DNA of 37,005 nt from a virus (taxonomy: Duplodnaviria > Caudoviricetes): positions 1-37,005 of the IMG/VR virus record IMGVR_UViG_3300033487_000316, one strand, 5' to 3'. Positions 1-35,955 of the stretch are shown piece by piece (position 1 is the stretch's first letter; every line of letters begins with the position of its first letter). The notes beneath the pieces were generated by a model, which saw nothing but the letters and a program-made list of their open reading frames with translations, was not told the DNA's origin and did not search any database. The position numbers and the translations under genes were made by a program.

Positions 1-3000
1 GCGTGGACCGTCAAGCGAGACTATACCGTTGACATCCTTGGCCAGCGCTTCCGCGTCTCGCTTTAAGCGCACACCTCTTTGTACGACAATGCGCCCACTT
101 GATACATAGTCTCCGGTCTTGGCATTTTTCCATGCCACAACTGGATGATCTCTAACTAACTCTAATGCCCTATCCATAGTCATCTCGGCCGGCGCAGCCT
201 CGCTCGGAGTCGGCACACGGGTTGTCACTTCTGCCGGCGAGGTCTCGCGCGGGGTGGGCACTAATCCTACAGACTCAGTAGCAGATTTAGCATCGTCCCA
301 TCCTTTGTACCATGCCGGTTTTAGAGCGGTCTCTAAACCACTCGGAGCAAGACGCGGATAGCCTTCTACAAAATGCCTCCAACCAATCTCAGATACTTCG
401 GACTCTGCCTGTGTGACGGCACGCGCAGCAGTCTCGCCCTGCGTGTACTTCCCCTGTAGCCAGTTATAGACGGCCTCGTTCTGCGCATGCGATGTGTCCG
501 CATCACTCGCGCCGGCCAGCTTCGCCAGCTCGGCGCGCAGGACTGTGATCCCAGCCTTACTCTGTGGGACGCGCGTGCCATCGTTGCGAATCGCCGTCAT
601 GATCGCGGCGCGTGCTCCGGCCCGGTTCGGACCAGACAGGGCCATGTCCCAATCCAGGCGCGCACGTCCGCCGAGGCTAATCATGATCTGTCGTTTAACA
701 TCTTCGATGTGCGCCGCTTCAAGCGAGAGTAGGTAGGCGTCTGCCGCTTCCGGTGTGATCTCTCCGATATTTTCGAGTAGGGGTAATCCACCTTCCGGCA
801 TCATGCCAGCCTGTGTTGGGCGGAGCTGCCCAAATTCAGGCACGGGGCTAATGCCTGGTAGCGGTTCTGTTGCAGCCACCTCGCGCGGCACAAAGGCGGA
901 CTCTGGCGCGCGCTGCGGGGTGCCGCTGAATATCGGTAACTCTTCCTCTCCAAACATCAACTGCTGGCCGGCTGGTGGTCGTCCGCGCTGCGCGATCGTC
1001 TTCGTCTCGGCTTCGCGTGCCAGTTGCTCGATCGGCGTTGTGCGGAATGACTCAGCGCGGACCTGCTCCGGCGTGCGTGGCGCAGGCTCTGCGACGGGCG
1101 GCTCGGGCCGAAGTGCGGCGATCTCTTCCGGGCTGTGTGCGACGGCCGTAATCGCCGACTTGGGTACAGTCACTTCCTGGCCGGATGGGACCAGCAGGCG
1201 CGCGCGTCGATCGTCTACTATCTTGATAACACGTGCCGGCGTATCCAGACCCGTAGCCGTGACCACTGATCCCAGCAGGTTACCGTTACTCACGTCTGGC
1301 CCGGTGAAGATGTCGGGCGCAATGTTGCGCAGGTAGGTGTACTTCCCATTCGCAACGTCATCTTTCAGCGCTGCGATGACACTTAGATCGACTGCCTCGC
1401 CGCGCTTATAAGCCCACAACAGGGCACCCTCGTAAGTCATCCCAGTACGGATCGGGTTTCCGGCGCTGTCAAATTCTCCGGTGTCCATCAGCGGGGAGAT
1501 CTGCGCGAGCACAGGGAAGCCGGCGGCTTTGGCTGCCGCCAGTCGGCGATGTCCATTTGTGACCACGTACTGCCCGTTTATGTGCTGCACAACTTGGATG
1601 GGCGGCGCGTTGCGTCCCTCGCGTAACCACTCCGCGTACCGCTGGGCGTCGATGTCACGGCCATCATAGCCTTGCTCGACGATATGCTCTGTCGGTTGGA
1701 GCGTGTTTGGATCGACGAGGCGTATCTGTTCTACCTCGTGACCGTATCCTCCGGGGATCTCATCCCATAACCATTGGCCTGGACGCAGTGTCAAGCGCTC
1801 GTATAGGGTAGAGGGCGTGGTCCTACTGCTGGCGATCTTGATGTTCTCAGGGGTGAGATACTGTCCGATGTCCGCCGTCCTCAATCCGCCCGTGCTAATC
1901 ATCTGGTCAGGCCGCAGCGTGTGCGGCATGTCGGTCAGCGGATAGGCCGGCTCGGTCTGGACTAGCAGTCTCTCGTACACTCCGCGCATGTCGGGCGTGA
2001 TGTCGATGTCGATGTCACTCCCAAGAATACGCTGATAGACCTGCACGATCCATTTCTTAAAGCGCTCAAACAGCCGGCGCAGTTCAGGAGTAGGCGCGTA
2101 GCCATCGGCCAAAAAGCGCTCGAACCCGCGCGCCCAATCTTCCTGTGCTCCGACAACCAGACCCTCTCGGATGGTAGCCGACCGATCGATACCGGACGAC
2201 ATCAACTCATCGCGCCCGTTGTACACTTGGAATTGCCCGGCGTCTTCGACGAGACGCCAGTCCTTTGGTAGCCTGTCGCTGGTGGCGAGCAGCCGGCCAT
2301 CGACTAGGGATACATCAATGTCCCGACTTGTCTTGAGCCAGTTCTGATAATGACCCAGATCCTGCCGGGCCTGGTCGTCCACCTTGGCGGCATCGAAGAG
2401 GTCGTACAGGAAACCGTGACTGACTTCGTGTACAAACGAGGTGATGTCACGATTCTTGAAACCGGTGACCGTGCGCTGCCAACCCTCGCGCAGTTCAAAC
2501 GCGGCCTTGGGCTGGCGGGCCTGCTCTTGGAAGAGTGGGACACCCTCACGCAGCACACTCTCACGCATGGCCGGCGTGATGTCGAGGGAGTGAACTTGTT
2601 CGACTCGTGCGTTTTTGCTGGCTGCGGCCAGTGCTTCCGCATGTGTCTTATAGAACGTGACGACATCTGATCCGTCTTCGTTGTACTGACGCAAGCGCCA
2701 GGGTTCTGCCGATCCATCTCCGAGATCATCGATCTCATATTCCCCGGTTCTATTCGGAAGAACTTCTCCGGCTGCCTGCCTGGCAGATTCAAGCGCTTCA
2801 CTGCCAACTTGCGATCGTCCTACCTCCCACTTATCGCCTAACTCATCGACTCGATAGACCGCAAACTCATCGCCCTCGCGCTCTAGTGTCATGTTCTCAC
2901 TGGCGAGATATTCACCATCTGCCAGCCGGCCGATTTCCCTTTCTCGTTCAGGACTGTGCCAATACGCAGCGTCAACATTTTCGGGCTTAGTGCTTACGGT

Positions 3001-6000
3001 TGGCCTAAACACATCCTCGGTGACTTCTGTTTTCTCGATGCCGATGCCAGAGAAGAGGCGGACTTTATTTCTGGCATCGTTTGGTGTATCGTAGAGGGCT
3101 ATCGCGCCATTTTCATGGCGTAGGTATGACCCATCCTCAAGGACGACTCGATACTTGGTGCTCGTGACCGACTCAATTTTACCGATAACCGTCTCGCCAA
3201 CCTGCGCGCCAAACTTCTTGCCAAACTTATCGGCGTACTTGGGCAGGATGTCATCATAGAAACCCTTCATCCCCTCCCCGCCGACAGACAACTGTGTTCC
3301 TGTTAGACGCTTATAAGAGTAGGGGTATTCTGTTGTAACATATTCATTACCATCGCCGGCCACAATGCGCGCCGCGATGTCCTTACCAATGTAGTTCTCC
3401 AGTTCTTCCGGCGTGAGCGGTTGCCGATTTGCGAACGTGCCGCCTATACCGTCTGTTGTTTCATAGGTGACAATGTACTTTCCATCTTCTGCTGACTCAT
3501 AGTTGATGTGCTTAACCCGTTTCGATATGTCGTAGCGTTCGGCCTGCTGCGCGCCAGTTGTCCACGCAATGCGATCGTACCCTTCCTCGGCGGCCAGCCG
3601 GGCGATGCGCCGAAAGGCCATCTCGTGCCAGGTCTTGGCATAGGGCGCCTGCGGGATACCGCGATCTTTGATCCGATCTAACTCCGATTGCAAGGCGTAT
3701 TGTTCTCGTCCGATCTCGCCGTCGCGCACATTAAGATTGTCGTGCAACCGTTTCAGGTCGGCATCAGGCCACTCGTCTTTCAGCCAGTCCCAACCATACT
3801 TTCCATACCGAGACTGATCGATGGTACCGTTCTGCATTTCGCGCAGTTGTACCTGCTGGCTGATACCCGCTAAGCGTTCTTCTTCTAGTGCAGCCAGTTG
3901 AGCAGTAATCGCCTGTACACGTGCGGGATCAACATACCCCTTCGTTCTACCCTGCTGGTGCCAGTCGCTCTGAATCTCTTCGATGAAGAGAACCTTCTTT
4001 CCGTCTGCATCAATCCGATCGTCAAGGCGGAAGTGGGCCAGTAGATTCTTGCCGAAACGTCCAAAGTGGGATGACTCGTATTGCTTCATCAGCGACCGAT
4101 TAAGATAGTCGGTCTTCTGATCGTAGATGCGCTTCCACTCCGGGCTATCTTCGGGTAGATCGCCGAGAAGTCGATTGAAGTATGCCACTTTGGCACTTTC
4201 AACCGTACTGGTATCCGGCATGGACATCAGCACTTCACGATAGTTCTCTCCGCCTGGCAGAGTATAGAGGTCGTAGATCGGAGTGGGCGCATTCACAACA
4301 GTCTTTTGCGCCTGGTTATATTTCCGCTTGGCTGACTGCGTGCTTTCATACAACGCACTTAGATACTCGCGCAGGCTATCGGCGCGTTCCTGCCCCAATC
4401 TCTTGACGAATGATAGGACTATCCCGCGCGGAGGATTCGGCTTAGCGAAGACTTCTACCAATCCACGGGCTGAGCTGATTGTTAGATCGAGATCGGCGAC
4501 GGTGATCTCGTCAACAGCCTGTTTCTTGGCGAGGTCAAGCCGGCCTTCAAGCGTCGTCATTTCAGAGTAGTACAGATCGCGCTCATCAATGAGGCTCTTG
4601 GGGATAGCCCCTAGAGTTTGCTCCTGTAGTGCAAATTGATTAGCGTTCAGGTAATCCAGCGCTTCGACCTTGCTGACTGGTCCAGTCTGTTCGTTCAGCC
4701 AGTCGTCGAATCCGGTCCACATCATCTCGTCGGCCTTCACGCCAGCGCCGGCCAGCATCTTACGCAGTTGGTCGATGGGCATTCGCGCCGACATCTTAGC
4801 GTCCAGCGTGCGCGCCAGAACGGAGTACCAGACCGGGCCGATCGCCTGGGTCTGGAAGAGGGGCTTCGCGCCGAACGAGAGTAGACTGTTAGGGATCGTC
4901 TCTTCGCGCGTCCCGATCGTGACGGTCGATGACTCAGGCGTGATGGACTTGACGACTGCCATCTCGCCGCGCGGCGTAACCACGGCATCGCCAATCTTCC
5001 AGGCCACTCCGGGCACTTCGCCAACTGCCGGCATGGGAGCCTCGACCAGTGGCACAAGTTCCCCACCTCGCGCCAGGTCTTCACCAAAGAGGCTGTATTG
5101 CGTCGGCTGCCCGAACATATCCAATTGATCGACGGCGGCCCGCTGGCGTTGACCACGCTGATACAGGGCCTGGGTAATGTCTCCAATTCCGCCAGCCTGC
5201 AAGCCGTACCAATCCTCGGGAGGCCGGTTCCAAACTCGTGACCAGACCTGCGCGTGTGCGTCGAGCAAAGCCATTGACATCTCGACCTGATCGGCATAGT
5301 CCGGGCTGGCCTGGTCAAACCAGCGGCTGACTACCTCATCAAGATAGCGCTGGCGTGTCCACGGGATAAGCGGCACGACATCGCTGGGGGCCGGATCAAG
5401 CAGGGCTTCGCGCGCCGTGACAACCTCTGCCTCCTGCTGCACTACGCGCGTCACATCCTCGACGGCAGACAGGGCCTGCTCGTTCAGGATCTCAGCCGGC
5501 GTTGCCTCAGCAAACATCGCGGCTCTGGCTTCGGCGTCGGCGCGTGCCGCTTCAAGGCGCGTGTTCATAGACTGCGTTGCTTCGAGTAGTGGCACATCCT
5601 CCATGTTTTCGTAGGCGGATAGATAGGCCCAGTCTGGATCGTCGATGTGCGCCTCGTTTGCCAGTCTCCGATCTTTGTTGACGGCATTCAATAGATGCTT
5701 GCGGCCACCCTTCCAGCCGGCGGCACGCATGATCGCCGTGTCCATCGTCGCCAATGACGGGGGCGGGACTGTGCGCAGGGGTGCCACTTCGCCCGGAGTC
5801 GGTTGTGCCCAAGTGGGTATCTCTTCCATTCCGGCCAGTGGATCGATCATCGTCTCGGCCAGTTGTGCCTCTTGGGCAGCGAGTAGTTCATCAACCGGGA
5901 TAGCCTCGGGGGTCTCGATGGGCGGCAAGCCAGCGGCTGCACGAGTAGCGTTGACCTCCGGTAGTACCTCGATCGGGGTCGGAATGTGGACCGGTGTCGG

Positions 6001-9000
6001 CAGGTCTGGCGTGCGTTCCGGGTCGAATACCTCACGCGCATTGAGAGTATCGAAGTCTGTCCCGGTAACACTCATGGGCTGCTCGACTGGTCCGGTCTCT
6101 GGTGCCGGCGTCACGGTCGGCGGTTTGATGGGCATCACATCCATTACCCGGTGACGCATGTCGATGTTGCGGATCATGATGTCCCGCCGGCGTGCCGTGC
6201 GTTCGGCATTGAAAGCCAGCCAGCGCTTGGACTTCTCCTTAGCGCTCTTGATATTCTTGATCGACTCGCGGAAGCGAGAGACAGCGGCCATGTCCTCCCG
6301 GTTGAACTGGCGCACGGTGTTGCGCCAATCATTGAAGGCGCGTCCGGTCTCATCGCCGAAGGCACGCGCAAACTCGGCCGTCATGTAAACGTCTGTGCGC
6401 AGCGCAATCGCCGCGAGGTCATCTGAGAGCGTGTTATACAGGGCGTTGATCTGTTCCTGTACCCTGATCCATTCCTCATCCGACTGCCGCTCTGGCCGTC
6501 CGAAGAACTCCGATCGAATCCGATCGCGCTCGGCGATAAACTCCTGGGTCTTCGCCCGCTTCTGTCGGGCCGCCGTTAGCCAGTTATCACTCAACTCCAA
6601 CCCGGCATCTTTCAGGCCGGACTCGACCCCGCGGTAGATGGCATCCTCATAGTCGAAGTAGGTTTGCCAGGATGAATCATCCGCCTCTGACAATTCCCGC
6701 TTCATCAGATCCCGAATACCCTTGTTGCCCTGCTGGTTGATGCGCTCCCACTCCACGTCATGACGGGACATGGTTTCTGAGTAGGTATCGAACAGGCGCG
6801 TTTCAATATCGTCGATACTATCCAGCGCCGCGCCCACATCGCCCAGCTTCATCACCTCCATAGCGTGCTCGCCAAACTGCGCGGCTTCCTCGCGTGCTGC
6901 TTCGTGGACAGCCTTCTCGCCGGCAGCTTTGATGTTGGCGAATGCCTTGCGGATGTGACCCTCGGTCGGTTTCTCGGGCAGCTTGCCCAGCTCGGTATTG
7001 ATTGTGCGGTCGAGGCCATCGATCTTGAACAGGTCTACTACCTGCTCTTCTGGCATCCCCAGATCGCGCGCCGTCTCTTTGATGTACTGCTGCATCACGG
7101 GTTGCGGGGCTTCGCCGAAGACTGCCGCATTGATCTCGCGCGGGTTTGCTCCGGCTTCGACCGCTGCATACACCCACTCAGGATCGATCCCAAAGCCGCG
7201 CAGTTGTTCCTCAAGCGCCGGCGGCATCAGGTCGATGCTCTTACCCTTGCGCCAGTTGGACGCATGGAAATCAAAGAACCCTTTGACCACGGCGCGCGCA
7301 CTCTGCCACTTCTCCACCTTCTGCGCCAGGCTGGTGGCCGGCATCTTGGCTGAGATACTATTACCCAGCCGCGTAATCTGCGCGAGTGCATCCTGTTTGT
7401 CCATCCCCTCTAATAGGACATGCTCACCACGCTTGTAAGCGACGGCCCCCCAGTTGCCGGCGTCGTTTGCTAAATCGGTCAGCTCGGCAGCGCCAATACC
7501 AGAGCGCAGGCGCGAAGGATCAATGCCCATGCTGCGCATCCGCTCAATGCCGGCTTTGATGTTGGTTAATCCCCAGACCCCACGGGCGAACATCGTCGCC
7601 TCGCCGTTGAAGACATTGTTGACGAGGTAACCAAGATTAGGACCCATCAGTAGCGTAGACTCGATCGCCTTTACAGCTCCAGCCAGACGCTGCGCGAAGC
7701 CGGGCGGCTGTACCTTAAACGTCTGAGCCGACCACTTGCCGGCATTCTCCATCATGCGCGAGAAGATCGCAGCCTGGTACTCTTCGGCAGTAAACGCCTG
7801 GCGACGGCCCATTGCATCGTACTCACGGAAGAGACCACGAATCGACTGTAATCCGTCTGCGTCAATCTCACTCGTACCGATCTTGAGAGGCGCACCCGTT
7901 GCCGCAGCAAACTCGGCGAGCACGCCGGCAGGATTTTCCTTGATGCGGTCGAAGACTGCAGCCGGCGTAATGTCTAACGCTTCGGAAATCTGATTGATAA
8001 GAGCCGCATACGGACGACTGGCCTTCCAACCGGAGAGCAATTCGTCGTAACTCTCCATCTCGCCCAGCGTCTGGCGATAGACCTTGCCTTCTAGGGTCTC
8101 CTGTATCTTAGAGTAAGCCTCGCGTCCTGGCATGGCGGCCGGCAGATCTTCCGGTCGCGCGCTGATGGTTGCCTTGACGGCGGCTGTGATGTCATCGACG
8201 TAGTTTGGATCGCCGATCGTAAAGCGCGAGTTGAGGTTTGACTGGTAGAAATTCAACGCCTGGTGCATCGTCTCTTTGGCTTCGCTCATCGGTTCGAGAC
8301 GATTCAACTGATACCACTTCGGCGGCTCGTAGCCGGCGCCCTCCGCCAGTTTTACCAGCGTCTTTGAGAGTAGCACCTTTTGGAGCATGTTCAGATCGCG
8401 CGCGGCTACAAAGTCATGGCGGAAGGGTATCTCACTTAGCATGATCCGCTTGTAGTTTTCCAGCGTCTTGATCAATCCGCCTTCGTAGGCAATCGCCGGG
8501 AAGGGGAAGAGGTCTAGTTTGACGCGGCCCTGCGTGCCCAGGATGCGCTCGGCCAGACCTTCACCACCCAATCTACGGACAATGCCGGCAGCGCCGCGCT
8601 GAATCGAACCCAGCGGTAGCGCTTCGGGCGTCATCGCCAGGGCCTTAGCCATACCTGGATCGTTGGCGTACTTGGCGTACAATTGCAGTCCACCCCGCTG
8701 GGCCTTGCCTACAAAGTTCAATGGATCGAGGAAGATGTTAAGCGCGAGATCTCGGATTTGACCCGGAGCACCAAACGACCCAGCCACTAGGGCCTTAATC
8801 TGATCCGGGTTCTGGCCTTCGAGAATACGTTGACGCGCCCAGGCCAGGGCATTGACACCAGACATGGGGGCCGGCCCGGTATCCCAATCGACAAACTGTG
8901 ACGTGGGGGATTCCATGATCCCATACATCGGCTTGCCAGTACGGATCGAATCGAGCATGTGCTGCACACCGAACACGCCGCGCACATCGAGCGGGGTAGC

Positions 9001-10113
9001 GGCATAGGTCAACTGTGCAGCGTCCCAGGCTGCGCCGAAGTTCTCGGCGAAGGTTTTGTTCTTGTCGAAGGAGTATTGATCTGGGTTGATCGCGGCAGCC
9101 AGACCCTGCGCACTCACGCCAATCACTCGCTTCACAGTCTCAGCCGGCGCATTGAGTGCGAGCAGGGCCATGCCTGGGATCGTGCGGTCAAATTCTTTTT
9201 GAGCCGCGTATAGTTCTTCGGCGGATGCAGCACGCTCGGCGAGTTGGCGTTGTTGTTCGGCCTGCACTAACATTGCGCCTGTGCCGATGGCTCCGCCGAT
9301 CAACGCGCCGATCGGGCCGGCGATAGCACCACCCACCAGCGCCGAAGGCGCACCTCCGGCAATAGCGGCCTGTCCAATCTGCGTCAGTGGATTGGACATG
9401 AATTGCGCAAACCCTCCACGCAAAGTCTTGTTAGGGTCGCCCTCTGGTAAACCAAACTGCTGACCAGCCCCCACCGTATCCTCTTTGTACTCGACGGGCG
9501 GCGCGATCTCGCGCGCAAATAACTTGATCTTCTGGTAACGCTTGTTCCCTTCCGTGCGATATTCGATGTTCCAGTCCTTACCAAACTCGCCAGGATTGAA
9601 AACAAACCCACCCTCTGGATCTAGTTCATAGTCCTCCGGTCCGCGCAGGTCAAGTCCAGCGGCTGTACCAATGTTCTTGGCAGTCTCAAGCGCATCCGAC
9701 ACAATCCGTATAGGGCCGGCCGGCGCTTGTGGCTGCTGCGAGCGTATCTCGCGTACTTGCTGATAACGCTGGCGGCTCTCTTCGTCCGGGGTGATGTGCA
9801 TTCGACCATCGTCGAGCACGCGCACCTTTGACTTTTCAAAGTTGACCCAGTTTGGTAAACGATATTTGAAGCGCTGCGCCGTTGTTCCGCCCGGGGGAGC
9901 CTTGTTAGGATCGTAGTATTCCCCTCCCTTGAAGCCGGCCGCCCAGCGGTCGCGCATCGCACGCATACGTGGGTCGGTAGCCGGCGGACCAAAACTGATC
10001 GGACGATTGGCCGGCGTCTTAGCCGGCGTCTTGGGCGGCTGTGGAGGTGGCGCTGTGTTAGGTTTTCCCTGTCCAACGGTTTGGGTTGGTTTCTGCTGTG
10101 GATTAGTAGCCAT
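1..10113 (-). CDS. Giant (>3,371 aa, 3'-truncated by window edge) polyvalent / internal virion (DNA-ejection-type) protein
   Basis: ATG at 10113 (MATNPQQKPTQ...). This minus frame has no entries in the ORF track and showed no stop wherever I translated it, down to base 1 (...ALAKDVNGIVSLDGPR). It contains a Gly-zipper hydrophobic segment (~9270-9370), a conserved phage domain with LFIEEIQSDWHQ (~3960-4000) and GMKGFYD (~3250-3275), an HEVSH zincin-like motif (2416-2430) followed by EDWARGFERFL, and a ParB/Srx-like PPIQV...VVTNGHRRLAAA segment (~1520-1610). Confidence 0.9.
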   Translation of the reverse strand, partial: MATNPQQKPTQTVGQGKPNTAPPPQPPKTPAKTPANRPISFGPPATDPRMRAMRDRWAAGFKGGEYYDPNKAPPGGTTAQRFKYRLPNWVNFEKSKVRVLDDGRMHITPDEESRQRYQQVREIRSQQPQAPAGPIRIVSDALETAKNIGTAAGLDLRGPEDYELDPEGGFVFNPGEFGKDWNIEYRTEGNKRYQKIKLFAREIAPPVEYKEDTVGAGQQFGLPEGDPNKTLRGGFAQFMSNPLTQIGQAAIAGGAPSALVGGAIAGPIGALIGGAIGTGAMLVQAEQQRQLAERAASAEELYAAQKEFDRTIPGMALLALNAPAETVKRVIGVSAQGLAAAINPDQYSFDKNKTFAENFGAAWDAAQLTYAATPLDVRGVFGVQHMLDSIRTGKPMYGIMESPTSQFVDWDTGPAPMSGVNALAWARQRILEGQNPDQIKALVAGSFGAPGQIRDLALNIFLDPLNFVGKAQRGGLQLYAKYANDPGMAKALAMTPEALPLGSIQRGAAGIVRRLGGEGLAERILGTQGRVKLDLFPFPAIAYEGGLIKTLENYKRIMLSEIPFRHDFVAARDLNMLQKVLLSKTLVKLAEGAGYEPPKWYQLNRLEPMSEAKETMHQALNFYQSNLNSRFTIGDPNYVDDITAAVKATISARPEDLPAAMPGREAYSKIQETLEGKVYRQTLGEMESYDELLSGWKASRPYAALINQISEALDITPAAVFDRIKENPAGVLAEFAAATGAPLKIGTSEIDADGLQSIRGLFREYDAMGRRQAFTAEEYQAAIFSRMMENAGKWSAQTFKVQPPGFAQRLAGAVKAIESTLLMGPNLGYLVNNVFNGEATMFARGVWGLTNIKAGIERMRSMGIDPSRLRSGIGAAELTDLANDAGNWGAVAYKRGEHVLLEGMDKQDALAQITRLGNSISAKMPATSLAQKVEKWQSARAVVKGFFDFHASNWRKGKSIDLMPPALEEQLRGFGIDPEWVYAAVEAGANPREINAAVFGEAPQPVMQQYIKETARDLGMPEEQVVDLFKIDGLDRTINTELGKLPEKPTEGHIRKAFANIKAAGEKAVHEAAREEAAQFGEHAMEVMKLGDVGAALDSIDDIETRLFDTYSETMSRHDVEWERINQQGNKGIRDLMKRELSEADDSSWQTYFDYEDAIYRGVESGLKDAGLELSDNWLTAARQKRAKTQEFIAERDRIRSEFFGRPERQSDEEWIRVQEQINALYNTLSDDLAAIALRTDVYMTAEFARAFGDETGRAFNDWRNTVRQFNREDMAAVSRFRESIKNIKSAKEKSKRWLAFNAERTARRRDIMIRNIDMRHRVMDVMPIKPPTVTPAPETGPVEQPMSVTGTDFDTLNAREVFDPERTPDLPTPVHIPTPIEVLPEVNATRAAAGLPPIETPEAIPVDELLAAQEAQLAETMIDPLAGMEEIPTWAQPTPGEVAPLRTVPPPSLATMDTAIMRAAGWKGGRKHLLNAVNKDRRLANEAHIDDPDWAYLSAYENMEDVPLLEATQSMNTRLEAARADAEARAAMFAEATPAEILNEQALSAVEDVTRVVQQEAEVVTAREALLDPAPSDVVPLIPWTRQRYLDEVVSRWFDQASPDYADQVEMSMALLDAHAQVWSRVWNRPPEDWYGLQAGGIGDITQALYQRGQRQRAAVDQLDMFGQPTQYSLFGEDLARGGELVPLVEAPMPAVGEVPGVAWKIGDAVVTPRGEMAVVKSITPESSTVTIGTREETIPNSLLSFGAKPLFQTQAIGPVWYSVLARTLDAKMSARMPIDQLRKMLAGAGVKADEMMWTGFDDWLNEQTGPVSKVEALDYLNANQFALQEQTLGAIPKSLIDERDLYYSEMTTLEGRLDLAKKQAVDEITVADLDLTISSARGLVEVFAKPNPPRGIVLSFVKRLGQERADSLREYLSALYESTQSAKRKYNQAQKTVVNAPTPIYDLYTLPGGENYREVLMSMPDTSTVESAKVAYFNRLLGDLPEDSPEWKRIYDQKTDYLNRSLMKQYESSHFGRFGKNLLAHFRLDDRIDADGKKVLFIEEIQSDWHQQGRTKGYVDPARVQAITAQLAALEEERLAGISQQVQLREMQNGTIDQSRYGKYGWDWLKDEWPDADLKRLHDNLNVRDGEIGREQYALQSELDRIKDRGIPQAPYAKTWHEMAFRRIARLAAEEGYDRIAWTTGAQQAERYDISKRVKHINYESAEDGKYIVTYETTDGIGGTFANRQPLTPEELENYIGKDIAARIVAGDGNEYVTTEYPYSYKRLTGTQLSVGGEGMKGFYDDILPKYADKFGKKFGAQVGETVIGKIESVTSTKYRVVLEDGSYLRHENGAIALYDTPNDARNKVRLFSGIGIEKTEVTEDVFRPTVSTKPENVDAAYWHSPEREREIGRLADGEYLASENMTLEREGDEFAVYRVDELGDKWEVGRSQVGSEALESARQAAGEVLPNRTGEYEIDDLGDGSAEPWRLRQYNEDGSDVVTFYKTHAEALAAASKNARVEQVHSLDITPAMRESVLREGVPLFQEQARQPKAAFELREGWQRTVTGFKNRDITSFVHEVSHGFLYDLFDAAKVDDQARQDLGHYQNWLKTSRDIDVSLVDGRLLATSDRLPKDWRLVEDAGQFQVYNGRDELMSSGIDRSATIREGLVVGAQEDWARGFERFLADGYAPTPELRRLFERFKKWIVQVYQRILGSDIDIDITPDMRGVYERLLVQTEPAYPLTDMPHTLRPDQMISTGGLRTADIGQYLTPENIKIASSRTTPSTLYERLTLRPGQWLWDEIPGGYGHEVEQIRLVDPNTLQPTEHIVEQGYDGRDIDAQRYAEWLREGRNAPPIQVVQHINGQYVVTNGHRRLAAAKAAGFPVLAQISPLMDTGEFDSAGNPIRTGMTYEGALLWAYKRGEAVDLSVIAALKDDVANGKYTYLRNIAPDIFTGPDVSNGNLLGSVVTATGLDTPARVIKIVDDRRARLLVPSGQEVTVPKSAITAVAHSPEEIAALRPEPPVAEPAPRTPEQVRAESFRTTPIEQLAREAETKTIAQRGRPPAGQQLMFGEEELPIFSGTPQRAPESAFVPREVAATEPLPGISPVPEFGQLRPTQAGMMPEGGLPLLENIGEITPEAADAYLLSLEAAHIEDVKRQIMISLGGRARLDWDMALSGPNRAGARAAIMTAIRNDGTRVPQSKAGITVLRAELAKLAGASDADTSHAQNEAVYNWLQGKYTQGETAARAVTQAESEVSEIGWRHFVEGYPRLAPSGLETALKPAWYKGWDDAKSATESVGLVPTPRETSPAEVTTRVPTPSEAAPAEMTMDRALELVRDHPVVAWKNAKTGDYVSSGRIVVQRGVRLKRDAEALAKDVNGIVSLDGPR

Positions 10114-10176
10114 GTAATTGCCTTGCGCTATGTAATGGCGCACGCTCACGATCGAGGATGATCGAAAGCCTGATCG

Positions 10177-10215
10177 AAAATGAGGCGACCGCGCAGTAGC
10201 GATCGGTCGCCCCAT
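10177..10215 (-). terminator. Intrinsic terminator-like hairpin upstream of the giant gene
   Basis: Minus strand ATGGGGCGACCG-12 nt loop-CGGTCGCCTCAT (one G-U pair) followed by TTT. Confidence 0.55.
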
Positions 10216-27748: not shown

Positions 27749-27800
27749 AAAAATTTAAGGCAATAGAGCATTGACTTACTGTATAGATTTGTAATACACT
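27749..27800 (+). promoter_or_regulatory. Rightward promoter AAAAATTTAAGG-N10-TTGACT-N18-TACACT
   Basis: Carries both repeated motifs; GGAGG RBS at 27807 and ATG at 27819 follow. Confidence 0.75.
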
Positions 27801-28101: not shown

Positions 28102-28590
28102 ATGAAGATAAAGCAGTGTGTTGTAGTCATCCACGGCAAGCGCTGCACCAATCAGCGGCGACCGGGCAGCCGATCGTGTGGCTGTCACGGGAAGAAGAAA
28201 TTCCGCTCAGTCAGGATTCGGCCACAGTCAGGCCCGATCTTCATCGAGGCAGCCTCCCCCTTATCCATACCAGAAGATCAGACTTACTCCGTCAAGCACG
28301 TGGATTACTCATATCCCGTGGTCGTATTTAATCCGGCAGTGGGATTGTTGCGAGTATCAAATCTACCTACCAATGCTCAGGAGCTGGGCGAGTTTGTCGC
28401 TCAGTGGCTGAGAAAACCAGGTCATATCCTAGAGGATGTCTACCGCATCGCTCCGAGCAAGATCCAGGTTTGGCCCGACGATTTTGGGTTGACAGCTATC
28501 AAGCTCCTTGAGCGTGATACTCCTCCCCCCGCCGGCTATCACATGGCCTTTGCAGGTACGGCACTGGTCGCTTTGGCGGTTCCAGAATGA
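28102..28590 (+). CDS. Hypothetical protein with N-terminal Cys/His cluster
   Basis: Start reassigned to 28102 (AAGGGG RBS); C..GKRC......CGCH. Confidence 0.65.
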   Translation: MKIKQCVVVIHGKRCTNQRRPGSRSCGCHGKKKFRSVRIRPQSGPIFIEAASPLSIPEDQTYSVKHVDYSYPVVVFNPAVGLLRVSNLPTNAQELGEFVAQWLRKPGHILEDVYRIAPSKIQVWPDDFGLTAIKLLERDTPPPAGYHMAFAGTALVALAVPE

Positions 28591-28997
28591 CCAGCATTCC
28601 ACAGGCCACCCTCGACACCTATGCGGCCACTCCGGCGACCATCACCTCGCGCAGCGGTCACATGCTCTATGTTACCTATTCCGGTAAAGCGTATTCAGTC
28701 TCGACGATTTACTGCACGTGCTCCGATGTCGAAGCGGCTCTCTACCGCACTGGGCGGGAAAGCGACGACAGCTATCAGGCCGTGTTGGTCTGTCCAAATC
28801 ACGGGACCCATACCTCAGCAGCTCTACCCTGCGGAAACCCGACAGTGCGCGGCGAGACGATCTCTCCGCGACAGGCCGGACGTATCTTTGGTTACTCAGA
28901 ACAACTGGCGCGATCTGCGGCAAAGCGCAGCAAAGTCCCGCAATGGGGCTTCAACTCGAATGCCGGCTCTGGAACTAACGATCGAGAGTCCGGTTAA
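28587..28997 (+). CDS. Hypothetical Cys-containing protein
   Basis: ATGA overlap; CTC and CPNH motifs. Confidence 0.6.
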   Translation: MTSIPQATLDTYAATPATITSRSGHMLYVTYSGKAYSVSTIYCTCSDVEAALYRTGRESDDSYQAVLVCPNHGTHTSAALPCGNPTVRGETISPRQAGRIFGYSEQLARSAAKRSKVPQWGFNSNAGSGTNDRESG

Positions 28998-29028
28998 TAT
29001 CTAGTTAGCCCGCTATTCGGAGGTAGGC

Positions 29029-29292
29029 ATGGCAGATATGCTTTTGGTAATTGGTTCTTCTCTTTCCGGTTCAGATGTGTCAGCGAAAGACCGTTCTACC
29101 ATCTTTAATAAGGTCGAGGCGCATGTTGGTGATCCTGTTGAACTGTCTCGTGAGGCATGGCAGGCAATCACCTTTGCGGCGAAGATGGAATTTTTACGCC
29201 AGTGCCGCAAACAGGCGCGGGCTAACAAGCGCGTGCAGCCGACGCGCAGGGCTGGCAAGTCTGGTACATCAAAATCTAATGCGCGCGGCTGA
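29029..29292 (+). CDS. Cassette 1 hypothetical protein
   Basis: GGAGG RBS; C-terminus (ANKRVQPTRR...) is read through the attC. Confidence 0.7.
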   Translation: MADMLLVIGSSLSGSDVSAKDRSTIFNKVEAHVGDPVELSREAWQAITFAAKMEFLRQCRKQARANKRVQPTRRAGKSGTSKSNARG

Positions 29293-29312
29293 CGCGCAGA
29301 CCGTTAGCCCGC
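29217..29312 (+). repeat. attC-like site
   Basis: GCGGGCTAAC-AA-GCGCGT(G)CAGCCG(A)CGCGCA...TGCGCG-CGGCTG-ACGCGC-AGACC-GTTAGCCCGC. Confidence 0.85.
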
Positions 29313-29328
29313 TCGAAAGAAGGAAATC

Positions 29329-29574
29329 ATGGAAGAAGAAATCAGAGGCAGGGGCATCAAGTTACACAATGACTATGCAGCCGCACTCGGAAGGCTGTTT
29401 GCAGAATGCCCTAAATCCGTGTTCGCCGCCATTGCTGTAAGTGCTCTAACGTGTGGCGGAGAGCAATTGCAGGACGCGCAATATCAGGTGTGGAATGAAT
29501 GGCGCATCCTGCACGAAAATGGAATCGTAGAGCAGAAGCCCCCGGCGAAGCCAGAATGTGCGCCAGCCGCTTAA
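29329..29574 (+). CDS. Cassette 2 hypothetical protein
   Basis: AAGGA RBS, 81 aa. Confidence 0.75.
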   Translation: MEEEIRGRGIKLHNDYAAALGRLFAECPKSVFAAIAVSALTCGGEQLQDAQYQVWNEWRILHENGIVEQKPPAKPECAPAA

Positions 29575-29591
29575 TTCAACCGTTGGGCCGC
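29566..29591 (+). repeat. attC right-half remnant
   Basis: GCCGCTTAATTCAACCGTTGGGCCGC; no matching left arm seen. Confidence 0.5.
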
Positions 29592-29611
29592 AACTCTCTT
29601 GCGAGGATAAA

Positions 29612-29890
29612 ATGATAATCTCAGCATCAATCGTGGTCATGGGGCGCAGGCTGTATAAGTGCGAGACGTGCGGAAAAACTATCTTTGCGTCTCACGTCCG
29701 TCTCTATGGCAGCGCAGAACAAGGCGATCCGCCGTTCGTGGTACGCATCCATCCAGAATGTGCAACCCGTGAAGTGCTCGTAAAACTTCAAGCGGCCAAA
29801 CACCGCGTGAAGCCGAACGCCGATCATGCGTCGGTAATGTATCGGGTTAAAACTGCCGTCTCTGCTGTTGGTGGCGTCGGCTTATGCTAG
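29612..29890 (+). CDS. Cassette 3 small Zn-finger-like protein
   Basis: Start 29612 (GAGGA RBS); CETC...HPEC; C-terminus runs through the attC. Confidence 0.7.
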   Translation: MIISASIVVMGRRLYKCETCGKTIFASHVRLYGSAEQGDPPFVVRIHPECATREVLVKLQAAKHRVKPNADHASVMYRVKTAVSAVGGVGLC

Positions 29891-29903
29891 TCCGTTAGGT
29901 GGC
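29792..29903 (+). repeat. attC-like site
   Basis: GCGGCCAAAC-ACC-GCGT(G)AAGCCG(A)ACGCC...GGCGT-CGGCTT-ATGC-TAGTCC-GTTAGGTGGC. Confidence 0.75.
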
Positions 29904-29919
29904 TACTTGGAGGCCAGCA

Positions 29920-30126
29920 ATGTGCAACATTCAACTGTTAGGGCAAAACAATGTCGGAAAAGTGTATGGGTGTGAAACGCACGACCTGCGATTTGTAGTC
30001 ACTTGGCGGCAAATGAACTCTGGGTCAGCGTCGCCCTCGCCGGACAAGTGCCCGGAGAACGCCGCCCAACAAGGGCGTGAAGACCGACCCGCTACGCCGC
30101 CGACAGCGCGGGATGAATCAAAGTAA
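29920..30126 (+). CDS. Cassette 4 hypothetical protein
   Basis: Start 29920 (GGAGG RBS); ends inside the attC loop. Confidence 0.6.
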   Translation: MCNIQLLGQNNVGKVYGCETHDLRFVVTWRQMNSGSASPSPDKCPENAAQQGREDRPATPPTARDESK

Positions 30127-30159
30127 CGCGGGCGGCTTATGCCCGTGCCGTTGGGCGGC
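30061..30159 (+). repeat. attC-like site
   Basis: GCCGCCCAAC-AA-GGGCGT(G)AAG(A)CCG(A)CCCGC...GCGGG-CGG-CTT-ATGCCC-GTGCC-GTTGGGCGGC. Confidence 0.85.
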
Positions 30160-30164
30160 ATATC

Positions 30165-30431
30165 ATGGCACTACCACCAAGCAAAGAATTAGTATTCTGC
30201 ATAACGTTTCACAAAAGCATCCACGCTGGACACGATGACGAATGGTGTATCTGGCTACGTGTTGATGGAAATCGTTTTGAGTATTACGGAAAGAGCACAA
30301 AGTCACATGCAGACGCTAAGGCAAAGGCAACCCGCATCGCTGCCAAAGGTAAGCGCATGTGTTCTTTCGTCAGTGAAGAAGAAATGAAAAAAGGGACTGC
30401 ACATGAAGAAGAAAATTTACTTTACGCTTAA
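30165..30431 (+). CDS. Cassette 5 hypothetical protein
   Basis: ATG a few nt after the attC core; AT-richer than the backbone. Confidence 0.65.
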   Translation: MALPPSKELVFCITFHKSIHAGHDDEWCIWLRVDGNRFEYYGKSTKSHADAKAKATRIAAKGKRMCSFVSEEEMKKGTAHEEENLLYA

Positions 30432-30561
30432 CTCCATTGGGCGAAAGTTTGCATACCCAATGCTATCGGGACGTTCTTTGGTTGTTTCACAAAGCATCGC
30501 GCGTTTGTTCTTTGGGTTAGCAAATCTCTGCTGCCCAACACACTGGAACAGGAGGCCATAG
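30403..30561 (+). CDS. Small hypothetical protein (52 aa; below the ORF-track cutoff)
   Basis: AAAGGGA RBS, MKKKIYFTLNSIGRKF...; stop abuts the next ATG. Confidence 0.4.
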   Translation: MKKKIYFTLNSIGRKFAYPMLSGRSLVVSQSIARLFFGLANLCCPTHWNRRP

Positions 30562-30793: not shown

Positions 30794-31891
30794 ATGCGCA
30801 AGTATTTCATTGCAGTTAAGACCGGCCTCAGCCAAGATCCACGCCATCAGAAAAGGATGGGTAATCGTATCTGGCTGTTCCTCTTCATCGTCGATCATGT
30901 GGATTGGGAAACAGGCCGGATCGATTCTTGGACGGACGAATGGGCAGCCAGTGAAATGGATATGTCCAAGGCGACGATCAAGCAGCAGCGCCAGGAATTG
31001 CAAACGCTGGGCTATATCACTTGTCAACAGCTCAAGCGCTGGCAGCGTATTACGGTGCATAACTGGCAGAATCCGCGCTCGGCGACACGTGAGATCATCA
31101 ACAAAAAGCCTGTATTCGGCGATGAGTACAAGCGCAACCCCCCAAATATGGCACAGGCAGCAGTAGTCAAGGGTGATGGAATTACCTCCCCCTTGGCAGA
31201 AGAGGCCAAGGGGGAGGTCAAGGGGGAGGTCAAGGGGATAGGTAAATACCCCCCTCTTCCTATTAAAGATCAGATTGATCACATTGATCACACACTCAGT
31301 GGGTTTGAGGTCTGGGATGCTATTGTCCCTTATCTGGAAGCGAAGTTTAACGGCAGCTATGCGAGGCTAAATCCTCGTCTGCATTCGGTGGATGACCCGC
31401 GTATCTTGACAGTGTTCGTGAATGAGGCCGACCGGTATATCAAGGGTTCGATCGGGAAACTGGCGAAGATGGTCAGCGGTGAAAAGTGGGATGTGACGGT
31501 GACGGTCAATCCCCCAATCGTCTGCGGATCGACTCTTTTGCCAGTCCAGCAGCAGATCAATGCCCTGTCGCAGCGAATAGACCAGCTCGCCGGCGCTGTG
31601 CAGTGGGTAGACGGCGAAGACAAAGAAGCCTTGACGTATCTGGCCGAGAAGGACATCACGCCAGACCAGTTGGAGCAGATCTATCATATCGTGTACCAGA
31701 ACTCTCCCAAGTTCTGGGCAACCCGGCGCATCGGTCCAAAGACCATCGCCAAAAATATATCCCTATTGAATGGGGGGAAAAATGTCAGACCTACAACGGA
31801 TACTCGAACAGGAGCGGATAAGACTAGCGAAGCTGATCTCCGCGCCGTCGCCGCTGAAATCAACGCCGCTCGCGCCGCTCGGAAATCCTGA
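30794..31891 (+). CDS. Putative replication initiator protein (N-terminal wHTH)
   Basis: IWLFLFIVD...WAASEMDMSKATIKQQRQELQTLGYI HTH; internal iteron repeats; directly upstream of the DnaC-like gene. Confidence 0.75.
   Translation: MRKYFIAVKTGLSQDPRHQKRMGNRIWLFLFIVDHVDWETGRIDSWTDEWAASEMDMSKATIKQQRQELQTLGYITCQQLKRWQRITVHNWQNPRSATREIINKKPVFGDEYKRNPPNMAQAAVVKGDGITSPLAEEAKGEVKGEVKGIGKYPPLPIKDQIDHIDHTLSGFEVWDAIVPYLEAKFNGSYARLNPRLHSVDDPRILTVFVNEADRYIKGSIGKLAKMVSGEKWDVTVTVNPPIVCGSTLLPVQQQINALSQRIDQLAGAVQWVDGEDKEALTYLAEKDITPDQLEQIYHIVYQNSPKFWATRRIGPKTIAKNISLLNGGKNVRPTTDTRTGADKTSEADLRAVAAEINAARAARKS
31168..31243. repeat. Putative replication origin iterons within the initiator gene
   Basis: CAAGGGGGAGGT twice (31207-31230), inverted copy ACCTCCCCCTTG (31184-31195), degenerate copies at 31168 and 31231. 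Confidence 0.65.
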
Positions 31892-32582
31892 CGCAGATCC
31901 GGCCTGTGAGATGTGCGGCGGGCAGGGGTATTACTCGGTCAGTGTCCCGCTTAACCATCAACTCTTCGGGAAGGTACTGGACTGTCCCTGTACAGCGCCG
32001 GCTAGATCCGCGCGGCTGCAGGCGACCTGTGGTCTCAACTCCGCTGAGCGATCAATCACACTCGACGACATCGCAGCGGCTGGGCCGGGCACCAGGCAGA
32101 TGGTCAAAGCCGCGCAAGCGTTTATCGAAACTCCGCGCGGATTCTTGACACTGTGGGGGGGACCCGGCAACGCCAAGACGATGGTGTTACAGGCGATTGT
32201 CAATCAGGCCATCGGCTTAGGCCGCATGGCCGTCTACATTACCATGCTAGATCTGCTCGACTATATCCGCGAAGCCTATGCCGAGCGGCAGTCCCAGATT
32301 CATGAGTCCGCCTCGCGCCGGCTGAGTCGCTACGCTAACGTGGAAGTGCTCTGCATCGACGAGGTTGATAAGGTAAAGACTACCGACTGGACCGTAGAAC
32401 GGGAGACAGCCCTGTTTGATATTCGCTACCGCTCGGGTCTGGTCTGGTCGGCGGGTACTGTGCTGGCGATGAATGCCAATCCGGCCACTCTCCCCGATTG
32501 GATTTACAGCCGCCTCAGCGATGGCCGTAATACCATTATCGAGAATGCCGATCCAGACCTGCGCCGTTACATGAAGGATTGA
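31782..32582 (+). CDS. DnaC/IstB-like AAA+ helicase loader
   Basis: CEMC...CPC Zn motif, Walker A-like GGPGNAKT, Walker B VLCIDE, IYSRL; start could alternatively be 31770. Confidence 0.85.
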   Translation: MSDLQRILEQERIRLAKLISAPSPLKSTPLAPLGNPDADPACEMCGGQGYYSVSVPLNHQLFGKVLDCPCTAPARSARLQATCGLNSAERSITLDDIAAAGPGTRQMVKAAQAFIETPRGFLTLWGGPGNAKTMVLQAIVNQAIGLGRMAVYITMLDLLDYIREAYAERQSQIHESASRRLSRYANVEVLCIDEVDKVKTTDWTVERETALFDIRYRSGLVWSAGTVLAMNANPATLPDWIYSRLSDGRNTIIENADPDLRRYMKD

Positions 32583-33280: not shown

Positions 33281-33539
33281 CAAACTCCATGTTGGAAAAC
33301 GGCCCGGGAAATCTACTAGCGGGCGTGACCATGCCTACGATAAAGGACGCGCGCCGGGCAAAGCACAGTCCGTCTACTCGCCACAGTGCATCATCCAGAT
33401 CACGCGGAGCTATGGTCTCTGCGCCAACTGCGGAAAAGAACACGATCTCATCAATAACTACTGTGCGGTTTGTCGGGCAAATTGCGCCAATGAGGCGCAG
33501 TGCATGAACCCGCGCAGATTAACAGGAGCCAGTCAATGA
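33264..33539 (+). CDS. Zn-finger-like hypothetical protein
   Basis: CANC...CAVC; stop overlaps the MTase start (ATGA). Confidence 0.55.
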   Translation: MRSVSNKLHVGKRPGKSTSGRDHAYDKGRAPGKAQSVYSPQCIIQITRSYGLCANCGKEHDLINNYCAVCRANCANEAQCMNPRRLTGASQ

Positions 33540-35305
33540 TTGAAAGTGTGTGGCACGGTTGTTACGATCAGACTCTAAAAGGCATTATCACGCCAGAATC
33601 ATTCAGGCATCCGGCGAAGATGGGAAAAGTCCTGTGCGAACGTATCTTTGATCACGGAAACCAGATGGGCTACTGGCAGCCAGGCGATGTCATCGGCGAA
33701 TCCTTCGGCGGCATCTTCACGGTGGGTATCCTCGGTTCCTACCGCGGCTACCAGGTGATTGGTGTGGAACTCGAACCGCACTTCCACGATCTAGGGCTGG
33801 CGAATATCGACAAGAACCTCAAGAAGTTAAACCATCTGGGCAAGCCCATCCCGATCCTAGTTCAGGGTGACTCCCGTCAGTTTGCCGAGATTATCAGGAC
33901 GGTACTGCCGTTCATTGGCGCAGAGCACGCGGCCGGCGTCGTGACCAGTCCTCCGTATATGAGAGATCATGGTGAGAGTGGGATAGATCAAACTAAATTG
34001 AATGGGCATACTACAGGCATATATTCTCAAGCGTTTTCAAATGGATACGGTGACACCTCCGGCCAGATCGGCGCGTTGGACGGCAACGACTTCGATCAAG
34101 TTTCCGGCGTCATCACCTCGCCACCTTTCTCGCAGCCACAGACCCGCGACCGATCGGAAGTCTCGCCCGGTCTCATCGCAGACGCCATGACCCGCGCCTA
34201 CACCGTGGATCGACAGGGGACCACCGAGGGTAACATCGCGGCGCTGGCCTATGACGACATCGACGGTGTGATCACTTCTCCCCCGTTTGAAAGGACTTTG
34301 GCGCGTGAGCTTGTCGATGCAGACGCGCGCCGTGAGTATGCCCGTGCCCACGGCATCAGCAATGCCGAGCACGTCTCAGTAATCGATATGGAGCGCACGG
34401 GAGCACGCGATCAGGAGTATGGAAACACTGCCGGCCAAATTGGCGTGTTAAGTGGTGGGGAGATTGACGGGGCTATTACTTCGCCGCCGTATGCTGACCA
34501 GTCAATCGCCAAATCAAGCACCTCGATCGATTACCAAAAGCAATATGAAACCTATCGCAGTCAGGGAGGCGGAGCGTCGTTCGAGAAGTTCGTCGCTACA
34601 CAGAAACTGCATAGCCAAGAGTATGGCACAGCGGATGGGCAGATCGGTGTACTGCCCTCTCGGACAGACGACAACAATGAGAAAGAAACCTACTGGCAAG
34701 CAATGGCCCAGGTCTATCAACAGATCTGGTTAGCGCTCAAGCCAGGCGGGGTGGCGGCTATCGTCGTCAAAGACTACATCCGCAATAAGCAGCGGGTGCT
34801 ACTGTGCGACCAGACGGCCAGCCTCTTAGAGCGCCTGGGCTTTACCATCGTCGAGCGCACGCGCGCCATGCTGGTCAAAGAACAGGCGCAAGCCTCGCTC
34901 ATGCAGATCGAGGATACCAGTACCACCACCACCAATCTACTCGGCGATACATCCGCGCAGGTAGGCGCCGAGATCGGAGAAGTGGCCGTCAGCGAGCGGG
35001 TCGAGCGCTTATCTTTCTTCCGCCGGCTGCACGGCAAGAAATACCCTCACCTCAAGATTGAATGGGAGGAAGTAATTTGGGCGCAGAAGCCGGGCCAGAA
35101 TGGGGGGGGGATTGAAGGGGTTGTTACCTCGCCACCGTATGGCGATGGATCAGCAAATCATGGAGGAAACATCAACAACTCAAAAATGTATATCACTGGC
35201 GGAAAATTATACGGTGTCGGATTAGAAGACTTCCATTCTGTAGCTCGATATGGTGAAACGCCCGGCCAGATCGGACAGTTGAAAGAAGGAGATATACCCA
35301 CATGA
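33536..35305 (+). CDS. DNA amino-methyltransferase-like protein (N4-C/N6-A) with five TSPP[Y/F] modules
   Basis: Start 33536 (AGGAG RBS); HPAKM, degenerate motif I (GESFGGIFT..GVELE), QGDSR, TSPPY/F five times, LKPGG..IVVKD. Confidence 0.85.
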   Translation: MIESVWHGCYDQTLKGIITPESFRHPAKMGKVLCERIFDHGNQMGYWQPGDVIGESFGGIFTVGILGSYRGYQVIGVELEPHFHDLGLANIDKNLKKLNHLGKPIPILVQGDSRQFAEIIRTVLPFIGAEHAAGVVTSPPYMRDHGESGIDQTKLNGHTTGIYSQAFSNGYGDTSGQIGALDGNDFDQVSGVITSPPFSQPQTRDRSEVSPGLIADAMTRAYTVDRQGTTEGNIAALAYDDIDGVITSPPFERTLARELVDADARREYARAHGISNAEHVSVIDMERTGARDQEYGNTAGQIGVLSGGEIDGAITSPPYADQSIAKSSTSIDYQKQYETYRSQGGGASFEKFVATQKLHSQEYGTADGQIGVLPSRTDDNNEKETYWQAMAQVYQQIWLALKPGGVAAIVVKDYIRNKQRVLLCDQTASLLERLGFTIVERTRAMLVKEQAQASLMQIEDTSTTTTNLLGDTSAQVGAEIGEVAVSERVERLSFFRRLHGKKYPHLKIEWEEVIWAQKPGQNGGGIEGVVTSPPYGDGSANHGGNINNSKMYITGGKLYGVGLEDFHSVARYGETPGQIGQLKEGDIPT

Positions 35306-35955
35306 CACACCCTGCCTATGCCGTCGCCGATAAACTGAAAGCTGCCATCGAGCCGGCCTGCGTCCGGGTCGAGATTGCCGGCAGTATCAGCCGGCTAAAA
35401 CCAGAACCGAAAGACGTTGAGATTGTCTGCCAGCCTCAGATCGGAGTGTGGACTGTGCCGGATATGTTTGGTGGACCCCCCGCCACTTATGAGGTCAATC
35501 ATCTTGAGACACTGCTAGGAAAACTGTACGAGTCTTTCCTATGGCGACTTGACCCAGAGAACAGAAAGGACGGACCAAATTATAAGCGGCTGCAACACGT
35601 CGAAAGCGGAATCGGTTGTGATGTCTTCATCGTTACCGATAGGCGTAAGTGGGGCATGATAAAAACCATCCGAACAGGATCAAGCACCTTCTCGCGCAAC
35701 CTGGTAACACACGTTCGGCATTGCGGTTGGTTTGTGCAACATGGCCTGCTACACCAGCATCAGCCAGAATTGAATGAACTCGACGAGGTTCAAGAGTGCC
35801 CTAACGGCCAGCAGTGCCCGCAGATTCTAGCACTCTATGAAGAGCGTGAGGTATTCGACGCACTGGGCCTGCCGTGGATCGAGCCTCCCGAGCGGACTAC
35901 ACTGATTGAAGCACTGGCCCGCGAGAACTACCGCCAGGAGTTAAAGGCCCTGTGA
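35302..35955 (+). CDS. DNA polymerase X family-like nucleotidyltransferase (stand-alone palm/thumb)
   Basis: VEIAGSISR..PKDVEIV, CDVF, IRTGS, EEREVFDALGLPWIEPPER. Confidence 0.85.
   Translation: MTHPAYAVADKLKAAIEPACVRVEIAGSISRLKPEPKDVEIVCQPQIGVWTVPDMFGGPPATYEVNHLETLLGKLYESFLWRLDPENRKDGPNYKRLQHVESGIGCDVFIVTDRRKWGMIKTIRTGSSTFSRNLVTHVRHCGWFVQHGLLHQHQPELNELDEVQECPNGQQCPQILALYEEREVFDALGLPWIEPPERTTLIEALARENYRQELKAL

Follow-up and report, generated by a model that had tools for sequence, protein, structure and literature searches.

Integrons and CALINs (clusters of at least two neighbouring attC sites with no intI nearby) have been reported in phage genomes by Qi, Rajabal, Ghaly, Tetu and Gillings (2023; PMC9892861), who found 17 CALINs among 10,705 genomes, those tabulated in the accessible part of the paper holding 2–4 attC sites. 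Phage attC sites were recombined by IntI1 in that study, and attI lay ahead of the CALIN in one inactive Shewanella prophage; the accessible part of the paper contains no CALIN with a named Chloroflexota host. Chloroflexota integrons are listed in the portion of PMC8618304 available to us. By the definition given in the available sections of ACID (PMC2674596) and of Cury et al. (10.1101/030866), a cassette begins with the T that follows the G of G/TT and ends with the G of the next R′, its own attC being the one found in the circular form and the sites in an array being chimeric. Cassettes inserted away from intI by an integrase acting in trans (attG, SALINs) are described in the available text of Loot et al. 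(10.1101/2022.09.11.507474), which also suggests attC loss as a form of domestication.

The element described here is a decaying, attI-led cassette array without an integrase in a probable Chloroflexota phage, and is a variant of the published phage CALIN. It has three attC sites within 940 bp, and no intI gene lies near them within the virus record, which we call the window: the whole linear sequence of 37,005 bp, 82% complete. As regards a complete integron, intI is absent from the record and attI is recognised solely by its sequence profile; as regards an attG site or SALIN, which is a lone cassette at a site unlike attI, there are five cassettes behind an attI-like site. The array resembles the CALINs of Qi et al. 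in being an attC cluster in a phage without integrase; DNA methyltransferase cassettes are a further common point, 3 of 60 ORFs in the related arrays being of this kind. Unlike those CALINs, the arrays of the phage group considered here begin with a host-type attI in 11 of the 14 cases whose head is visible, reach 10 sites and consist of small cassettes, with natural variants at G/TT.

Comparison with PHROGs places terminase subunits, a holin, DnaD-like and DnaC-like proteins and a DNA methyltransferase in the window. The array sits in the rightward early region of this tailed-phage contig, between a 136-aa ORF and the replication genes:

28587..28997, plus strand: upstream phage ORF, 136 aa, no family, ending within the attI-like site
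28985..29010, plus strand: putative attI-like docking site found with a weight-matrix profile, crossover G/TT at 29004/29005
29005..29303, plus strand: cassette 1, ORF 29029-29292, 87 aa, function not assigned, reading through its own attC
29220..29309, minus strand: attC1, intact (R″ 29220-29226, L″ 29232-29239, L′ 29288-29294, R′ 29303-29309)
29304..29582, plus strand: cassette 2, ORF 29329-29574, 81 aa, from a small protein family of viral contigs
29569..29588, plus strand: attC2, right half only (L′ 29569-29575, 6-base spacer, R′), no model match
29583..29894, plus strand: cassette 3, ORF 29612-29890, 92 aa, CxxC motif, reading through its own attC
29795..29900, minus strand: attC3, covariance model 31.1 bits, E 1.3e-6
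29895..30150, plus strand: cassette 4, ORF 29920-30126, 68 aa, stopping within the attC loop
30064..30156, minus strand: attC4, covariance model 24.7 bits, E 7e-5
30151..30547, plus strand: cassette 5, ORF 30165-30431, 88 aa
30562..32582, plus strand: downstream early genes, starting with a 76-aa ORF, PHROGs matches
30794-31891, plus strand: DnaD-like initiator, PHROGs match
31770-32582, plus strand: DnaC-like loader, PHROGs match

The G of each G/TT lies at 29004, 29303, 29582, 29894 and 30150, and the left cores (R″) end at 29226, 29801, 30070 and 30539. The array thus consists of three whole attC sites, with inverted R″ AAC and R′ GTT cores, and two half sites. The left half of attC2 has likely been deleted, while of the attC of cassette 5 the left core remains (30529-30539) with a possible L″ remnant (30541-30547). 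The ORFs of cassettes 1, 3 and 4 extend into their own attC; that of cassette 2 has its stop codon inside L′. According to the sequencing runs, DNA of the window occurs chiefly in wetland metagenomes, and no RNA runs containing it are listed. Three of the five G/TT junctions (29004, 29303 and 29894) are spanned by run contigs with at least 31 bases on either side. The terminase is 55% identical to that of G019 and the DnaC-like protein 50% identical to its counterpart in G001, both being records with the same attC type.

Several features elsewhere in the window deserve mention in their own right. An ORF of at least 3405 aa (1-10215, minus strand), with weak tape-measure, endolysin and ParB-like stretches, is possibly a giant virion protein. 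A small protein with a DNA polymerase beta thumb domain (35302-35955, plus strand) has relatives in G017 and G019, a 601-aa DNA methyltransferase-like ORF (33500-35305, plus strand) contains internally repeated motifs, and a perfect 14-base inverted repeat with 12-base tandem repeats inside the initiator gene (31184-31240) may be a replication origin.

A motif from the right half of such attC sites matched viral contigs at 24 loci and genomes at 115; titles naming Chloroflexota or a subgroup account for 85 of the genome loci, by a hand count in which one genome may contribute several. A covariance model was then built from 45 of 67 attC sites, taken from Chloroflexota-titled records only. Applied to the 37-kb window, it finds attC1 (44.9 bits, E 2.4e-10; fold z = -4.9), attC3 and attC4 and nothing else under E 0.07. 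The significant matches fall on the bottom (minus) strand only, the best plus-strand match at the array having E 0.47. Rfam gave no match. Across the 45 aligned chromosomal sites the named structure is 96% paired, the inner stem 98.4% paired with both sides changed in 11 of 18 pairs, and the R helix 89.8% paired, figures that lean upward because the sites were picked for pairing; the lower value for the R helix is as expected if that helix is chimeric in arrays. The L″/L′ stem has two unpaired (extrahelical) bases, with covariation, and the window sites align to this structure. The first extrahelical base of attC sites is usually G; in the Chloroflexota family it is C. Both the anatomy of the window sites and their match to this family are thus direct observations. 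At 25–45 bits the window sites score lower than most related phage sites, and since two of the five sites are also broken, the array may be inactive now. A 4-base R″–L″ spacer in attC3 was considered as a mark of decay and rejected, 4 bases being the norm of the family. Short contigs with the same attC motif (L084-L086, L102, L106, L107, L145 and L181) are binned as archaea, Thermotoga or unnamed bacteria; some carry phage-sized cassettes and may be misbinned.

The head of the array was assessed with a weight matrix derived from the first junctions of 10 phage arrays and three IntI-adjacent bacterial sites, the window being excluded. The 29004 junction ranks first among the 896 GTT sites of the window (11.4 bits; runner-up 5.9) on a profile that is loose because three training sites (L038, L019 and L137) scored poorly when left out, and the other four GTT cores of the array fall below zero. 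Three of the 11 phage arrays headed by an attI-type junction are outside the training set, and the remaining 3 of the 14 with a visible head do not open with such a junction. The segment 28985..29010 is therefore likely, judged by its profile, to be an attI docking site of Chloroflexota type. Its TAA (28995-28997) is the stop codon of the upstream ORF. The attG of Loot et al., as far as the available text describes it, needs little beyond GWT, whereas the entry site here has a 19-base attI profile, common to Chloroflexota integrons, and holds five cassettes. A scan for a Pc promoter gave as its best result a 9/12 match at 27771-27800, with 4 sites found against 2.9 expected. Could the stems simply be chance hairpins or terminators between small phage genes? 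A terminator scan also matches some of them, but model E-values down to 2e-10 with no other significant match in 37 kb, covariation in the attC stem, the top rank of the attI junction and the family-wide own-start comparison given below make this hardly conceivable.

The first-pass annotation had proposed that the cassette ends are complementary to their own starts, as a footprint of circular insertion. The quoted strings are where it placed them, and its counts for cassettes 1, 3, 4 and 5 (10/10, 9/10, 8/10 and 10/11) are exact. The pattern is real and above chance, but its presentation was selective, as it omitted the better downstream match of cassette 4. Over 10 bases, the left core of cassette 1 matches its own start and the downstream core equally (10 and 10), because cassettes 1 and 2 begin alike. 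Cassette 3 favours its own start by 9 to 7, as had been said, and is the only cassette in the window to do so; cassette 4 differs from its own start at 2 of 10 bases and matches the downstream core at all 10. For cassette 5 the own-start match is 9 of 10 and the downstream partner is absent, while cassette 2 has no left core. The four own-start matches total 24 of 28 variable bases. Starts drawn at random from the GTT sites of the window did not attain this once in 200,000 trials, and against 68 starts of the same attC family P is 0.001, but 12 of the 120 permutations of the window's own five starts equal it (P=0.10). The window by itself cannot separate own-start pairing from family likeness. 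A further expectation, that reconstituted circles would fold better, holds for cassette 3 alone (circle -18.3, array -15.0 kcal/mol); cassette 1 folds the same and cassette 4 worse (-20.8 against -27.3 kcal/mol).

The footprint is ordinary integron biology. The annotation's premise, that IntI cuts at G/TT and that the bases after G belong to the cassette's own attC, agrees with established work (the available sections of PMC2674596 and 10.1101/030866): because of this cut, the first bases of a cassette are the tail of its own attC, and left cores therefore pair with their own starts. Relative to the definition in those sections there is no difference in principle, though pairing here often extends to 10 bases, past the 7-base core.

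The same comparison gives a much clearer picture at the scale of the family. Of 73 adjacent site pairs in 18 arrays of related viral records, 6 were left out and 67, with intact triplets, were compared. The better match is with own start in 56 of these cassettes and with the downstream core in 4, with 7 ties (p=9e-13); mean matches are 6.1 and 3.8 of 7 bases, although the cassettes are partly non-independent, a few being common to several phages. Sixteen of the 67 have at most 5 own-start matches, as does cassette 4 of the window. An independent heuristic that ignores the variable core bases gave 38 wins, 5 losses and 6 ties in 49, and the circular form folds better in 37 of 49 related viral cassettes. 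A similar result is found in the arrays of genome records (51 wins, 6 losses and 9 ties of 66). These data bear on the possibility that cassettes were exchanged by homologous recombination between similar attC sites, independently of IntI. The attC sites of the family are indeed alike (mean column identity 68%), and cassette 4 could be a chimera of the start of one cassette and the attC of another. However, under such exchange junctions could fall at any point of the stem and own-start pairing would not be expected, whereas the junctions seen lie at or beside G/TT and own start wins 56 to 4; the family-scale test largely refutes this route, which we regard as very improbable. In L021, L028 and L031, some cassettes whose starting core departs from the GTTRRRY rule nevertheless have a left core that fits this start, which shows own-start pairing particularly clearly, and at L112, upstream of intI, the first cassette apparently entered at G/TC rather than G/TT.

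If cassettes move as units, the similarity of their relatives should end at the G/TT boundaries, and for cassettes 2 and 3 it stops at or within 3 bases of them, so that the refuting case named in the annotation did not arise for these two. The boundaries are observed directly in several relatives. A provirus record (L001) carries the cassette-2 gene behind an identical 12-base start but does not have the window's upstream attC, and in its two-gene cassette the terminal left core matches its own start at 10 of 10 bases and the downstream core at 4 of 10. At L185, the cassette-2 gene continues into an intact attC whose left core complements the start of the window's cassette 2 over 11 bases. 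The family thus occurs in cassette form at two close homologue loci; a further 21 loci have no attC match (L005 and L186 were excluded as duplicates). The protein collection contains a further 12 relatives of the cassette-2 protein. A tree of the homologues (35 rows, 70 columns) leaves 17 of 32 inner branches open and so gives no direction between cassette and attC-free forms. An attG reading of the upstream junction in L001 was considered and dropped: the junction has an attI-profile score of -14 and is possibly the right half of an attC that has decayed.

For cassette 3, a contig of run X1 (155 bases, depth 2.7) carries a variant that matches 29582-29634 and diverges exactly before the G. 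The 19 bases upstream are identical to the window's attI site at 14 positions and, by eye, apparently close an ORF whose final four residues and stop codon are those of the window's upstream ORF, so that the contig looks like a related locus without cassettes 1 and 2. In run X6, from a separate study, the sequence in front of a cassette-3 variant is different again, the divergence setting in 3 bases ahead of the G; another X6 contig has a base at 29798 that turns the left core of cassette 3 into a 10/10 match. Cassette 4 has zero-difference matches in contigs of runs X2 and X5. Homologues of cassette 1 (P0015 and P0016; 84–89% identical) have a common head and a different tail, the tail being attC-encoded in the window, and cassette 5 has homologues P0018 and P0019 (81–84%). 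Neither excised circles nor joints skipping a whole cassette were seen in contigs of six runs, which show presence only, and a close relative with an empty site was not found. In viral contigs there was no match for the initiator or for cassettes 1, 2 (as a single query) and 5, and the sole match for cassette 3 is an unrelated zinc-knuckle protein without attC (L214). Annotated phages gave no match. One cassette is found with different neighbours in two phage records, at L031, after the first attC, and at L034 2092-2603 (89% DNA identity over 379 bases); L031 and L042 have a methyltransferase cassette in common, at 44% protein identity.

The claim that the genes arrived as integrase-inserted circles is therefore supported, chiefly from outside the window, by the attC model, the 56 of 67 own-start wins and the G/TT boundaries; action of an integrase on these cassettes is what we infer from such sequence patterns.

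The cargo differs in size from that of the presumed hosts. Phage cassettes have a median length of 357 bp (n=35) compared to 786 bp (n=57) in genome records (p=1.7e-8). Among 60 phage cassette ORFs, 10 match PHROGs (3 methyltransferases, 2 HNH nucleases and 5 without known function), a rate that does not separate them from chromosomal cassette ORFs (9 of 55), and the five in the window have neither a PHROG match nor a Pfam match above cut-off. Pfam matches are found in 2 of the 60 phage ORFs against 23 of 55 chromosomal ones, a contrast confounded by length because those 55 are the longer ones selected from 111. No cassette shared between phage and host was found, which is weak evidence because sharing is scarce overall (5 phage-phage and 3 host-host protein pairs). 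The Chloroflexota (Anaerolineae) chromosomal integrons at L101, L112, L118, L137 and L142 have the same attC family as the window, and in three of them attI ends similarly; unlike the window, they have a divergent intI, attC sites of ~130 bp, cassettes of ~790 bp and host-type genes (GNAT, DinB and hydrolases).

Alternatively, a single illegitimate recombination event might have moved attI and cassettes together from an integron in a host chromosome into the phage, with nothing but decay afterwards. Host-type sites and two broken attC sites out of five would fit such an event, and Qi et al. (PMC9892861) propose off-target capture for phage attC clusters. The small phage cassettes speak against it, as do the cassette-3 variant found directly at a homologous attI in the X1 contig, the presence of cassette 2 as a cassette in another phage record and, given how rare sharing is, the lack of cassettes in common with hosts; we consider block capture quite improbable.

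As to the enzyme, no tyrosine recombinase (PF00589) match was found in the record, 82% complete, and the 37-kb contig itself is free of an integrase. IntI above cut-off occurs in one of 23 related viral records; of the four with a completeness of 90% or more, three lack it. G011 is an example of a complete phage that has an array but lacks IntI. The exception is the temperate phage G017, in which terminase, portal and serine integrase are accompanied by an IntI of its own (428 bits), an attI and three cassettes. One terminase family is found in 11 of the 23 records, that of G017 belonging to another. G017:C1 35898-38643 (L038, L045 and L050) is a complete integron in which intI is co-oriented with the cassettes and has its stop codon within attI. 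Circles might also have been inserted by an IntI of the phage itself, encoded in the unsequenced part or by an intI that lay upstream of attI in an ancestor and has since been replaced. The precedent of G017, which has the same attC type and an intI stop codon placed like that of the window's upstream ORF, favours this, as does the completeness of 82%, which leaves room for such a gene in the missing part. However, no integrase similarity was seen when it was sought in the upstream ORF (28587..28997), and 22 of the 23 related records lack IntI above cut-off, including most of the nearly complete ones, so that a phage-encoded enzyme appears unlikely.

Host-supplied IntI is plausible in view of the distribution of the gene. 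In the likely host class, taken as that of an Anaerolinea record, 65 of 201 genomes have IntI above cut-off, and the gene lies beside the array at 5 of 80 genome loci retrieved with flanks. The host is probably an Anaerolineae-type Chloroflexota bacterium, an assignment based on the attC/attI family; the DnaC-like protein has 31–40% matches in 8 of 401 genomes of the phylum, the only phylum compared, and atlas searches indicated neither host nor function. As the sequenced part of the phage has an array and no integrase, it likely borrows the integrase of its host to swap genes.

Taken together, our preferred reading, held with moderate confidence, is that the locus is likely an attI site with five cassettes inserted singly as circles, the IntI likely being supplied in trans by an Anaerolineae-type host. 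The identity of that host, the source of the enzyme, the order of insertion and the expression of the genes we infer as follows. Circles would be inserted one by one at attI by an integron integrase acting in trans, with newcomers entering at attI and older cassettes shifting downstream, where they would be transcribed from the early operon of the phage. Later partial deletions would have cost attC2 its left half and attC5 the greater part of its sequence, and would lock those genes in place.

The footprint itself merely confirms that these are true cassettes, and it is their setting that matters. Phage attC clusters have been published as rare and probably accidental; here many phage records of one likely host group have them, behind a docking site and made up of small cassettes that form a size class of their own, and most of these records lack an integrase. 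A phage group with a host-type attI and cassettes half the size of those of the host was not found in print, and we found no earlier report of attI-led arrays in Chloroflexota phages in literature covered mainly outside subscription journals. A more tentative and rather doubtful extension is a phage cassette economy, in which a host-type attI in the early operon would serve as a hitch-hiker platform for host IntI and tiny cassettes would be traded from a pool specific to phages, including some ordinary phage genes that had gained an attC. Were this true, the cassette-2 family, with attC at two loci and without it at 21, would represent cassette birth in progress. The origin of new cassettes is stated as unknown in the available text of Cury et al. 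(10.1101/030866), and gene families found with and without attC in phages offer a natural series for studying it. If host IntI does load phage sites, integrons would also be a gene-shuffling tool for phages.
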